Shown: positions 2,425 through 8,445 of the stretch, piece by piece
Position numbering within the stretch: position 1 is the first letter of the stretch
How the letters are laid out: the number at the start of each line of letters is the position of its first letter
Assembly: GCF_011745625.1 (NCBI RefSeq)
Contig: NW_027191474.1
Coordinates: 62,001 to 126,000, forward strand
DNA from: Cladosporium halotolerans
Taxonomy: Eukaryota
Direction of reading: 5' to 3'
Length of the DNA stretch: 64,000 bases
Position numbers and translations under genes: made by a program
The notes under the pieces: generated by a model
The model's input: only the letters and a program-made list of their open reading frames with translations
Told to the model about the DNA's origin: nothing
Databases searched by the model: none

Positions 2425-3346
2425 GATCCAGTATCCCCGGTATCCCTTTTAGTTACAAGTGCAAAAGCAGAAGATCGCGATTGAGGTAAGTTTCACCAGT
2501 TGCGTCAATCCTTTTTACAAAACATTCGGTGCCGGCAACGCCACTTCTTGAATCAAAAACCCCTGGCTGGCAGACCTGCGCCATGGTGGGTTCAAGGCAC
2601 GCCATCCGGACTTGATGGGCTTAGCAAGAGTGCATCCAGTCATAGCCGAAGGCGCCAACTCAGCTCTTGGTACTCCAGGAGGATCACAGTATCCACAAGC
2701 TCCCAAGCCTGCATTTCTTATCAAAGTGGCTCGGTCATCTTGAGCCCATGAGGACACGCTCTGAGCCAAGCACTGGGATAACATCTAGATTCGAGCGCCA
2801 TGCATGACTTGGAGCGCTGGTGTAGAGGTCATTCGTAATGCGAAGCCGCCATGAGGTGCTCGCGTGTTTGGATCCACAAGATGTTGAACACCTGGTCGGA
2901 GGTAGTTCCAGCAACAATCTGCCCAATCACACAGGATGAATTGGGAGGTCACAGACAAAATTACGGAGATACGCTCGAAGCGAAGTTGAAGGTCGTTACG
3001 CAGATGATGCACTGCGTTGCTAGCAGGCTGCTCTAGTGTGAATTGCAAGCTTGCGGAGTTGGATTGCGCCATCTGCACTCCAATCCGGACAACACCAAAC
3101 CTTTTGCGGGGACGTCCGAAGTGTTTGATCGATAGCTGTGGGTAAGATGGCTTTGATGGGTAAGCAGAAATAGTAACCTGGTGACAGAGTGCCGGAGGCG
3201 GCAGCTTAAAAGGACGACGAGAGCGGAGATATCGTAAATTGTAGCATCAGCTCTATCAGTCCCACCGATCAGCTCCAGCAATTCCATTGAAATTCCGAGT
3301 TGAGAGAGTATACTTTCCTAGTCCAGATTCATTCAATCTACACAAC

Positions 3347-4640
3347 ATGGCGCCCGCAGCAATCATCCCCGAAATCACCGACTACGTCCAACCAAAGAAG
3401 GACAACCTGAACCTCCCTGGTCCAACCAGAGCGCGACTCGAGAAAGCCGGCATCGATCTCAGCCAGGGCTACCCTGTGCGCAACCACATCAGCGGTGTCC
3501 TTCTCTTCCACTCTAACGAGCTACGCAGTACCGGCCAGCCCGCCCGTTGTACCTCCAAGATGTCTACGCCATCCGCAACGAAGACAGAGGATACGTCGAC
3601 GCTGGCACGCGCGCGGACCCGAAGAAAGCCGCCCTCTTTTCCGCTGCGAAAGAGGTCAAGAACCTCACCGCGCACATCGGAACGGAGATCGTCGGCTTGC
3701 AGCTGAAAGACCTCACTGACCAGCAAAGAGATGAGCTCGCGTTGCTGATCGCCGAAAGGAGCGTGGTGTTCTTCCGCGATCAAGATCTCAGCCCGCAGAA
3801 GCAGCTTGAGCTGGGCAAGTATTATGGTGAAGTCGAGATTCATCCTCAGGTGCCGCATGTGCCCGGCCTGCAGGGCACGACGGTCATCTGGCCTGATCTG
3901 CAGAAGTCCGAGACTGGCGCAAGCTTCAGAAAGCCGATCGGCACGCAGGGCTGGCATACAGATCTGTATGTGATTCCAGGCATGACCACACGGCATACTA
4001 ACTGAATTCCAGGGTCCACGAGCGCCAGCCAGCAGGCATCACACACCTGCACAACGACACCGTTCCCAGCGTCGGCGGCGATACGCTGTGGGCCTCAGGC
4101 TACTCCGCGTACGAGAAGCTGTCGCCAGAGTTCCGCAAGATCATTGACGGCCGGTATGCCGTCTACCGCTCCGCGCACGCGTACCTTGACCGTGACGACC
4201 CTAGCGCCGGGCCCAAGTATATTGAGCGCAGCCACCCGCTCGTCCGCGTGCATCCCGTCACCGGCTGGAAGAGTCTCTTCGTGAACCGCGCGATGACGAA
4301 GAAGATTGTTGGCCTGGACGACGGCGAGAGCGATGCGATTCTGCAGTATCTGTTCAAGGTGTACGAAAGCAATGTTGATATCCAAGTCCGATTCAATTGG
4401 ACGCCGGGCACGAGCGCTCTGTGGGATAACAGGTAAGATTGTGATGATTCCACGCGGATTCGAGATTGAAAGCTGACAATTGGCGTCGGTAGGATCACGA
4501 TGCACAATGCTTCATAAGATTATCAGGGCCTGGAGCCACGCCACGGCACTCGTGTGACGAGTCTTGCAGAGAAGCCGGTATTCTATGCTGAGGCGCCAAC
4601 CAGGAGGCAGGCGCTTGGATTGGCTGCTCCTGACGAGTAG
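3347..4640 (+). CDS. Fe(II)/2-oxoglutarate sulfonate dioxygenase (TauD/TfdA, Jlp1-like) with an in-frame TAA at 4515-4517; introns 3476-3528, 3966-4012, 4433-4492
   Basis: Spliced frame gives VVFFRDQ, WHTDLVHE, GGDTLWAS, HPLVRVHPVTGWK, then WDNRITMHNAS*DY...RHGTRVTSLAEKP. The stop interrupts the last exon, so the gene may be a pseudogene. Confidence 0.9.
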
Positions 4641-4779
4641 TCGAATTTTCTTTGGGTGTCAAGCGCGGCTAGTAGTCTCGACAGTACCATCGTCCAAATT
4701 CTCGGAGTTCAGCAATCTAAGCCTCTTTTCGAGTCAGGAGACATCTTCGAGCTTCTCAAAAGGTTGGCCTGACACGCTT

Positions 4780-6624
4780 TCACCAGTACGCAGGCGTCCT
4801 CGTCCACTTGTACCCTGGCCCCGGCCACGCTTTCCCAGGCGCATCCACGGTCCTCGTCAAAGCTGCAGGGCGCACTCTCCTGTGCACCAGATTCGGCCTG
4901 CCCGCCAAGCAAACCTTCTCCAGCCTCGGAGCATCCAGGATATGCGGGCGATCGTCGTCATCCTCGTCAAACTTGCGGTCGTCGTGCACCTCCTCATCCC
5001 AGTCCCCCGGGGTAGTGTCCAAAGGATCTACCAGCCAGCTCTGCGGGAGGTAAGTCTCTATGTCCTCGAAGTCGTCATCGGTGAAGTCCGGATAGCGCCG
5101 GAGCTCGAATTTGCAGATCTCGATGCCGGTCAGGTTCATCGTATTCGCGACGAAGTATCCAAAAGGCCACATGTCATTCTCTTCGTTTCTCTCCTCGTCC
5201 CAAGTATCGCCGCAGCAGAACATGCTGATTAGGTGAAGCGTGCGCAGGCTGGCGGCGTGGGCGGCAAGGAGCTTGCGGAGCGACCCGAAGTCCGCCACCC
5301 AGCCCTCTAGCTCGAGAGTTCTCAGGCGAGGGAAGCGAAGCTGGGCGACGATGTCGGTGAAAGGTAGCAAGGTCTTGATAGCGGAGCAAGTGTCTTCGTA
5401 TTGAAGGAAGCCGTCGATGGGCCCCTTGGCTACCAGCGCCAAGTGCACTATCGTGTCGGGAATGGCTTGGAGGAGCTTTGAGATTTCGAGTCCTAAGCCG
5501 AAGCGCGGAGACATCAAGGACTCTTCAATAAACAAAGGTAGGCGAAGCGATCGGAGACCTTTGAACAATTGTCTCCAATTATATCGTTTGATGTGTAATG
5601 AGTGCCACTCGTCAGAGTCCTCGCTCATACCGTGGTCGTGGGGCTCTATTTCATGATCAGGCTTGTCAGCAGACCTAATTTCCTCCGTCGCCAGGAACTG
5701 AAGTTCTTTGTAGAATGCCAGAGGATCCGTGGAATTGCATCGCTGCTCGAAAGGGTGTGGGCCAAATGAAATGGAGCGGAGCTCGCCTTTGACGTGAACG
5801 ATGATCTGCAAGAGGGCAAGGATCTCGCTGGTGACTTCGCTTGTGTATTCGATATTATTCCATCGCTCTGGCTCACGAACATTGCCGAAAAGGCGAGTGC
5901 AAAGATCAGCATAGCACTCGTTGTTGCGCGCAAGGCCTCGGTAATCCGTGAAGTAGACATGTCTGAGTTTCGGAAATCTGCGAAGGACTTGTCTAATGAT
6001 CTGACCATATTCCTGGTCAGTGTCGAGGTTTTGGTGGGTGGTGTAGTACCTTTTGTAGGTGGGAAAACTTTGACGAGCGCCCATCCGATCCGCGATTCCT
6101 GTAGGATCATCGTGGCCATCAAACATTGCTTCTTTGATCTCATGATCCAGGGCCGTCACATCATCGCTCAATGGTTGCTTGAGTCTTTTGAAGAAATCTG
6201 TGGCGGCATCGGCCGAAGGCTCACCATTGTTGCGGTGGAAGGACTGGAAGAACTCGTCTTCCGCGCAGACGCGGCGTAGCCATTCCTCATCCCAGAACCG
6301 CCGGACGCCACTGTCCTCGATGCTTTCACACTCATCCACGTATGTGTCGAAATTACTGGCGCTGTACGGATCCCAAAAGCTCACGTCGAGAATGAGGCCG
6401 GTGACATGCCGGCTGAAGTACGGGTGGCATGCAACCTCATGGATCTTGGCGATTTCCGACAGCCGCTTTGCCAGAATCACCTTGGTGATCAGATACGGCG
6501 AGCTCAGTTCCTTGAATCTGCGATTCACTAGCCGGCACGATGAGATGTCCGGACGGTGCTCGGATAGATACTCGAAGATCCTAGAAAGTAACTCGGCTGG
6601 GAGCGAGATGACCGCACCAGCCAT
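4780..6624 (-). CDS. F-box-like domain protein with LRR-like C-terminal region
   Basis: 614-aa ORF. N-terminus SLPAELLSRIFEYL...SCRLVNRRF is F-box-like, and FPKLRHV / FPRLRTLEL / LRTLHL are leucine-rich repeats. Confidence 0.8.
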   Translation of the reverse strand: MAGAVISLPAELLSRIFEYLSEHRPDISSCRLVNRRFKELSSPYLITKVILAKRLSEIAKIHEVACHPYFSRHVTGLILDVSFWDPYSASNFDTYVDECESIEDSGVRRFWDEEWLRRVCAEDEFFQSFHRNNGEPSADAATDFFKRLKQPLSDDVTALDHEIKEAMFDGHDDPTGIADRMGARQSFPTYKRYYTTHQNLDTDQEYGQIIRQVLRRFPKLRHVYFTDYRGLARNNECYADLCTRLFGNVREPERWNNIEYTSEVTSEILALLQIIVHVKGELRSISFGPHPFEQRCNSTDPLAFYKELQFLATEEIRSADKPDHEIEPHDHGMSEDSDEWHSLHIKRYNWRQLFKGLRSLRLPLFIEESLMSPRFGLGLEISKLLQAIPDTIVHLALVAKGPIDGFLQYEDTCSAIKTLLPFTDIVAQLRFPRLRTLELEGWVADFGSLRKLLAAHAASLRTLHLISMFCCGDTWDEERNEENDMWPFGYFVANTMNLTGIEICKFELRRYPDFTDDDFEDIETYLPQSWLVDPLDTTPGDWDEEVHDDRKFDEDDDDRPHILDAPRLEKVCLAGRPNLVHRRVRPAALTRTVDAPGKAWPGPGYKWTRTPAYW

Positions 6625-7785
6625 GTCGCATACGGGGAAGCTCCGGATACAGGAAGGAAGCAGCCCTCATCGAGATTTCATGAGTCCGAGACGCTCCGAA
6701 AGGACTGGTGTTTGGGGTCTCCGGGTAGGGTGGTTTAGTTTGTACGCCGCGAGATGGTGTGGGAGTGGGAGCGGGAGGTCTCGTCCAGGTGCCAGATGCG
6801 TTGAACGAACTTTGTACGACACGACGGCGGATACCGTTCCAGGCCCGCACACAGGGCTGCTCACCCGCAGTCTGTAAGGGCACACGTGAGGTTGCTGGCC
6901 ATGGTGGAGATGTCAACATGATGATGTCCGCGAAGAGGCGGGACTTGCTCCGGCCGAGATCCGATTGGCTTTCTTGGCGAAGCGTGCCGGGCGGTTGATC
7001 TGCATGAGTTCCAGACCGCTGCGACTCGGACGTCAGCATGGACATTCAGCACATCCTTCGGCGACAGAGTTGTTTCATCGCGATCCGGCGCGTTGAAGCG
7101 GCGAGATTTTCTGTCGGCATTGAGCATCATCTGGCCGCCGGACTATCTTCGACTTTCACCGGCCTCCTTCACCCTCCAGCGCAACTCCTGTCCAGTAAAT
7201 CCGGCCTCTTTCACGAGGTGATCTTTCTCTCCTATCTCGAGAGCTGCTTGCTGTTCATGCATCAATGTCGGCCTGGTGTCTCTCCGTCTCGTTCGACACG
7301 TGCGAGCTTAGCGCCGACTTTTACAGTTACGTTGCTCTGGAAGATGTGATACAAGACGGGAATTAGATTATAGAGAGCAAGGACTGGCTTAAATTGGGAG
7401 CGCTTCATACGTCAAAGAAGGAGCGGCAAGTAGGAATACCAGTCGTGAGACGTACAGTTGAGGCAGTCGGAGGACATGGACCAGGACAAGCCGAGTGCTG
7501 TGATGACTGTAGACAGCCTCGGGCTGTCGGCGCAGATCAGGCAGCCCCTTCGTGATTCTCCTGTAGATCGCCTCAGCGTGCGACGGCTATGTCGGCGGAT
7601 GTCGTTATAGCGGTTTCTTCGCATTTGCAGCTTTCGCATGACATGATACCGGTGTCTAGGCCGCTGTCTCGCAGCGACCAAAGGGACCTTGACCTGATGT
7701 CCGGCAGGCGGCTGGCCTTACAGCGTGCCACTTGGGACGCAGCCCAGGCGATGACGCCAACAAGATGGAATTCTTGAACTCCCGA

Positions 7786-7868
7786 GGTTCTATAGTGTAG
7801 CGGTTAGCACTTCGGATTCTGATAACACCAGCCTTCCGGCAACCCCGGTTCGATTCCGGGTAGGACCT
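7786..7868 (+). tRNA. tRNA-Gln(CTG) with 11-nt intron (7823-7833)
   Basis: GGTTCTA TAGTGTAGCGGTTAGCAC T TCGGA-TTCTGA[intron]T-TCCGG ... GGTTCGATTCC GGG TAGGACCT, followed by a T-run. Confidence 0.95.
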
Positions 7869-8445
7869 TCCCTTTTTTGTTTTGGTCCTGGATACCACGC
7901 CATTGAGAATTTCCCATGATGGTGGCGATCCTAGTGTGTCACTCTTCCACGTCGCTGCATGCGTAGTTTTGCTGTCGTTCGCCATTTGCAAGGAAGGTGG
8001 CGTCCTTCGCAACCTGCAGCAGTAAGCTTTGATGAGTTACCTCGGTCAGTCCGTAATAAATGGGGGAATACGGTCACCCTTCTGTGGTATCTCAAACCGC
8101 AACAAAGGAACCAATGCGGCTCGTACGTCTTGAGGACATTGTGGCGCTCTTCGGATAGTGTGGAGCCCACGCTATTGGCCGCACTTTGCTTATGGAAGTA
8201 CAAAGCACATTCTTAGCTTCTTCGTGTAATGTCCTCATGGTCGTCATGACTGATCGAGTCCGGACGATAAGATACTGCCTGCGGCCGATGAGACGATATT
8301 GCGCCCAGTTCCTGCTCGCTGACAGTCGAAGTTTCCGCTGCTTGCTCCAGCGCCGCCCTTGCTTCGTCGTCGTCGCATCTGAGGAACTTCATCCCCTGGT
8401 CCATATCTTATTGCCAAACGACCGCAACAGCAGCATTCCGCCAAC

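Follow-up and report, generated by a model that had tools for sequence, protein, structure and literature searches.

The 64,000-nucleotide window (the whole stretch of DNA analysed, to which all positions refer) contains what is very probably, at about 0.9, a young single-base nonsense allele (TAC to TAA), and probably a null allele, of a conserved sulfonate/taurine dioxygenase gene. The locus is read as a four-exon gene of a Cladosporium-like Dothideomycete, predicted to encode an Fe(II)/2-oxoglutarate-dependent sulfonate/taurine dioxygenase of the TauD/TfdA family. In Tyr codon 337, a transversion from C to A at the third position would have created a stop four codons past the last metal-ligand histidine. 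Translation is predicted to end at residue 336, and the product would lack its C-terminal 41 residues. The missing part probably holds the arginines for the C5 carboxylate of 2-oxoglutarate and for the sulfonate of the substrate, making the allele a probable null. We infer both that enzyme activity is lost and that no rescue takes place.

Gene structure and the premature stop

Splicing by script gives the gene, on the forward strand, 377 codons in four exons separated by three GT..AG introns. Exon 1 (3347..3475, codons 1-43) begins with the ATG at 3347, and its N-terminus, MAPAAIIPEI..., aligns with those of full-length homologs. Excision of intron 1 (3476..3528, 53 nt) yields the homologous sequence GYPYRPARPLYLQD, as in the proteins P0002-P0005. 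Exon 2 (3529..3965) encodes the metal ligands His186-x-Asp188 in the motif WHTDL and is followed by intron 2 (3966..4012, 47 nt). Exon 3 (4013..4432) carries the core of the TauD domain and is 91-95% identical to its nearest homologs. Removal of intron 3 (4433..4492, 60 nt) joins LWDNR to ITMHNAS, a homolog-like junction. The start of exon 4 (whole exon, 4493..4640; start, 4493..4514) encodes the third metal ligand, His333, with its CAC at 4503-4505. The premature TAA at codon 337 follows at 4515..4517, where relatives have TAC for Tyr and the homolog column holds Y or W. Beyond it lie 40 open codons (4518..4637), which include Arg345 (4539-4541), Arg349 (4551-4553) and the C-terminal strand, and then the original stop, TAG (4638..4640), within 0-1 residues of which the homologs end.

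The original prediction had placed an in-frame TAA at 4515-4517 in a gene with three clean introns, 40 open codons after the stop and no other lesion, and the spliced model agrees on each point. The TAA, in the context ITMHNAS-TAA-DYQGLEPRHGTRVTSLAEKP, is the single internal stop of the spliced frame, and no second lesion (other stop, frameshift or broken splice site) was found in the spliced model of the gene.

Several other routes to or around the stop were considered and rejected. The earlier question of whether an alternative 3' splice site skips the TAA was addressed with the 15 AG dinucleotides between 4465 and 4638, and no acceptor does so while retaining His333: those in frame beyond the TAA (exon starts at 4562, 4604 and 4607) all delete this histidine, and that at 4562 would lose both arginines as well. 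An extra intron removing the stop is rejected on the absence of any GT in exon 4 before the TAA (4493-4515). Reassignment of TAA to a sense codon is rejected because relatives have a sense codon at this position and the gene has no other in-frame TAA. RIP is rejected as the cause, C>A not being a RIP-type change and the G+C content of the region being 47-58%; the argument that a first G-to-A change would fit the TpG context of RIP is moot, since the change is C>A.

Family assignment and the part removed by truncation

Both central exons match the Pfam family TauD (PF02668) well above its cut-off of 27, exon 2 at 52.1 bits (1.2e-13) and exon 3 at 119.5 bits (3.1e-34). Among full-length homologs the closest is P0002, whose residues 88-361 align with E. 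coli TauD (1gqw_A, 5.3e-48) up to chain position 282. Correspondences with TauD were counted in this alignment, the motifs of P0002 around the stop being identical to those of the window. His186 and Asp188 of the window correspond to His99 and Asp101 of E. coli TauD, and His333, in the motif ITMH, to His255; the iron-binding triad His-x-Asp...His thus lies entirely 5' of the stop. Codon 337, the stop, corresponds to Ala259, Arg345 to Arg266 and Arg349 to Arg270. The retrieved text of one study of the E. coli enzyme describes Arg266 as contacting the 5-carboxylate of 2-oxoglutarate and Arg270 as coordinating the sulfonate of taurine (PMC7949033).

Counterparts of Arg266 and Arg270 are both encoded 3' of the TAA and are absent from the encoded product, as had been anticipated when the loss of an essential arginine downstream of the third metal-ligand histidine was proposed. 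Judged by homology, the DNA is a member of the TauD/TfdA family whose predicted product is cut before both arginines. Such a product, of 336 residues, should be impaired in binding both cosubstrate and substrate, and part of the C-terminal fold should also be missing. As the truncation removes both arginine counterparts, the product should be inactive, and on homology to E. coli TauD the allele is most likely a null in which enzyme activity is lost.

The gene shares with E. coli TauD (PDB 1gqw, 1os7) the Pfam family, the His-x-Asp...His triad and the two C-terminal arginines, all of which are encoded in the DNA. It differs in that the frame is cut at codon 337 and the product is without the Arg266/Arg270 counterparts. 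The fungal proteins are also longer at the N-terminus by about 85 residues, a stretch absent from bacterial TauD, the alignment beginning at residue 88. Among fungal proteins, the gene resembles the homologs named 'alpha-ketoglutarate-dependent sulfonate dioxygenase', exon 3 being 81-95% identical to hundreds of them from ascomycetes.

Neighbouring features

An MFS_1 transporter ORF on the reverse strand (1120-2448; open frame of 443 aa, Pfam 1.2e-27) is divergent from the TauD gene at a distance of about 900 bases, and the two may form a co-regulated pair for uptake and desulfonation. On the other side, an F-box-like ORF of 628 codons, also on the reverse strand (4783-6666; N-terminal domain 2.3e-07), is convergent, and its 3' end lies some 140 bases away from the TAG of the TauD gene. 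The 64-kb window has a single tRNA gene, a tRNA-Arg with the anticodon TCG (7785-7871, forward strand), whose length of 87 nt suggests that an intron is probably present.

Support for the base call

Sequencing runs matching the window numbered 23, and four of them (X1, X2, X4 and X5) were compared with it over 3250-4750 in the form of Logan contigs. The contigs of X1 and X2 show 0 differences from the window over the 1,501 bases, at mean word depths of 33 and 54.8, respectively. These runs, which share an organism label, come from two samples of a single study; they are possibly the window's own source, hence not independent biological replication. Logan contigs also lose rare variants, so that a minority TAC allele or nucleus would go unseen. 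The TAA is supported by the reads, and these matches exclude the assembly error that had been suggested as a mundane explanation. A sequencing or assembly artefact masking a true TAC codon would be expected to look like a one-base, third-position difference from relatives, which is how the stop appears. The TAA nevertheless recurs in contigs assembled independently for two runs, each from its own sample, without a single difference over the compared stretch, and random error would not attain such depth in both, so an artefact is exceedingly improbable. The TAA allele has so far been seen under one organism label, that of X1 and X2. The 23 runs also include metagenome DNA runs (X7-X14) and RNA runs (X15-X20), none of the latter belonging to the TAA-bearing organism; the RNA runs contain 0.07-0.20 of the words sampled and have different organism labels.

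Codon 337 in relatives

In X4 and X5, position 4517 is C and the codon reads TAC (Tyr). Both are about 97% identical to the window over 1,495 bases, with 34 listed substitutions (35 by count) and 3 insertions (5 letters in total). Their two organism labels differ from that of X1 and X2, and over the compared stretch no difference separates the two runs. Although they stem from different studies and years, all 35 differences and 5 gap letters against the window are shared, and two names have probably been given to one strain or species.

With exon 3 as protein query, 2,694 of 2,950 candidates qualified as homologs at E <= 0.001, and the top 120 of the 2,694 were examined. The nearest named homolog among these is P0002 from Cladosporium inversicolor, 91% identical in exon 3; its 90% cluster also contains P0121 from Cladosporium sp. 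NU13, and both of these named Cladosporium proteins read HNASYDY. Of the best 120, 104 matched the motif expression, the other 16, which include short or mis-modelled ends and truncated gene models, being left out. The residue in column 337 is W in 99 of the 104 and Y in 5, the latter being P0002, P0003, P0005 (Cryoendolithus antarcticus) and P0019 and P0021 (Meristemomyces frigidus). A degenerate DNA pattern with the codon unconstrained, applied to JGI metagenome contigs, gave Tyr at 5 of 5 loci (TAC at 4, TAT at 1). This census is small and biased, because the pattern demanded Met-His (ATG CAY) before the site and so reached the 'ITMH' subgroup only; the five loci match the window at only 42-43 of 53 bases.

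The sequences compared indicate that the ancestral codon 337 in this lineage is TAC (Tyr) and not a Trp codon. From the TAC of X4 and X5 and the HNASYDY of the Cladosporium proteins, the stop would be the result of one C>A transversion at the third codon position. Several premises of the original prediction change accordingly in status. Its motif HNASWDY holds for most ascomycetes (99 of 104) and fails for this lineage, which has Y; the Trp codon expected at this site is not the local ancestor, and the two adjacent G-to-A changes from TGG give way to a single base change from TAC. The stop is not shared by the relatives compared, X4 and X5 having TAC and all 104 motif-matched homologs having W or Y. 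A methodological lesson follows: a residue typical of the wider family (Trp) can mislead, and the nearest relatives reduce a seemingly two-hit, editing-shaped change to a one-base nonsense mutation.

Age of the lesion and selection

Exon differences between the window and X4/X5 number 21, comprising 17 synonymous, 3 conservative (K140R, D250E and S253N) and 1 nonsense. The introns differ by 11 substitutions and 1 insertion in 160 bases; intron 2 accounts for 8 of these substitutions and the inserted base, a divergence expected of unconstrained sequence. For codons 1-336 the method of Nei and Gojobori gives pS 0.068, pN 0.0039 and pN/pS 0.057, from 16 synonymous and 3 nonsynonymous differences. 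Codons 338-377 hold 1 synonymous difference (at 4541) and 0 nonsynonymous, too few for a separate test. Within exon 4, 24 columns are invariant among 12 aligned sequences (the window and 11 selected homologs). The differences from X4/X5 are unevenly distributed, with 0 in 3250-3806 and 34 listed in 3807-4710, a pattern that may mark a recombination boundary between lineages.

These substitution patterns point to a gene under strong purifying selection until very recently. The mutation appears young, as the rest of the gene is without decay, and its youth would explain the open frame downstream of the stop with no need of any rescue. The reading of the locus as a fresh null allele, one of those first put forward, is supported by the TAC in X4 and X5, the lack of a second lesion in the gene and the pN/pS of 0.057. 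An old pseudogene decaying under relaxed selection would also contain a premature stop, but it should not keep every splice site intact, a low pN/pS over codons 1-336, a stretch of 40 post-stop codons free of nonsynonymous change and the invariant columns of exon 4; we consider this history very improbable.

Editing and readthrough as means of rescue

In principle, the stop might be corrected in the transcript or at the ribosome. In fungi, A-to-I editing prefers U before the edited A. If both adenosines of the UAA were edited at some stage of the life cycle, the codon would become UGG (Trp) and the gene would be conditionally functional. Trp is the family-wide residue in 99 of 104 scorable homologs, so the edited product would probably work, and the downstream frame is intact. 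Two adjacent sites would, however, both have to be edited, the second A is preceded by A, against the preference for U, and the codon is not consistently placed in a hairpin loop: RNA folded locally over 61 and over 101 nt places it in differing contexts, with no stable hairpin-loop presentation, a result that is weak either way. An edited stop that was being maintained should be common to relatives, yet X4 and X5 read TAC, and the ancestral residue of the lineage is Tyr, not Trp. According to the retrieved text of PMC10041177, fungal A-to-I mRNA editing is specific to sexual reproduction, is common in Sordariomycetes and occurs also in the Pezizomycete Pyronema confluens; the same text reports that in Fusarium graminearum three sites of premature-stop correction have been confirmed functionally, so that editing of this type does exist in fungi. 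The nearest named relatives of the window are Cladosporium, that is Dothideomycetes, outside the lineages named there for sexual-stage editing (PMC10041177). A full-text literature search for A-to-I mRNA editing in Dothideomycetes returned, by title and abstract, only work on Fusarium graminearum, although a lack of reports does not show that the process is absent. The earlier statement that stop correction is known in Sordariomycetes and not in Dothideomycetes agrees with this literature as far as it was retrieved, which names Sordariomycetes and one Pezizomycete only. Like the genes with such correction in F. graminearum and other Sordariomycetes, the present gene has an in-frame stop inside an otherwise intact, conserved frame. 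Unlike them, it has UAA and not UAG, which would take two edits, its stop, derived from Tyr and not from Trp, is missing from close relatives, and its host class is without reported editing of this kind in the literature found. The premise that a TGG had become TAA and was restored by double A-to-I editing is not upheld, the ancestral codon being TAC and the stop being absent from relatives. Double editing is accordingly extremely unlikely; if true, a Dothideomycete would here be shown for the first time to correct a stop by mRNA editing.

If the UAA is leaky, basal or programmed readthrough might instead supply functional amounts of the full-length enzyme. In yeast, UAA is decoded by near-cognate tRNAs as Tyr, Gln or Lys, so that a rare event of this sort might even restore the Tyr, and the frame downstream is open and conserved. 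UAA is, on the other hand, generally the tightest stop, and to our knowledge the context UAA-GAU-UAU resembles no readthrough-promoting motif; the RNA fold around it is unremarkable. The intact downstream frame is equally well explained by youth, given one difference from relatives in 123 nt, and the stop is not conserved, X4 and X5 having TAC. No suppressor tRNA was found within the 64-kb window, whose sole tRNA is the tRNA-Arg described above. Readthrough sufficient for function is thus very unlikely. The lack of the stop in relatives, together with its origin from Tyr, removes the original argument for rescue, and we assign a close to negligible probability to rescue either in the transcript, as UGG (Trp), or at the ribosome, by re-insertion of Tyr.

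Significance

The young nonsense allele resembles the strain-private nonsense polymorphisms of fungal metabolic genes, in which a single nucleotide has changed, no other decay is seen and relatives are intact. It also resembles null polymorphisms of metabolic genes in that the family is often multi-copy per genome, as exemplified by the two Zasmidium cellare proteins among the listed homologs. On present evidence the stop is indistinguishable from an ordinary strain-private loss-of-function polymorphism; the finding is an ordinary one.

Its consequence lies mostly in annotation, where the locus is best described as a gene for a TauD-family sulfonate dioxygenase interrupted by a premature stop (likely null or pseudogene in this strain) and not as a truncated enzyme or a case of recoding. 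The TAA may serve as a strain marker. If no paralog compensates, the isolate may use sulfonates less well as a sulfur source.
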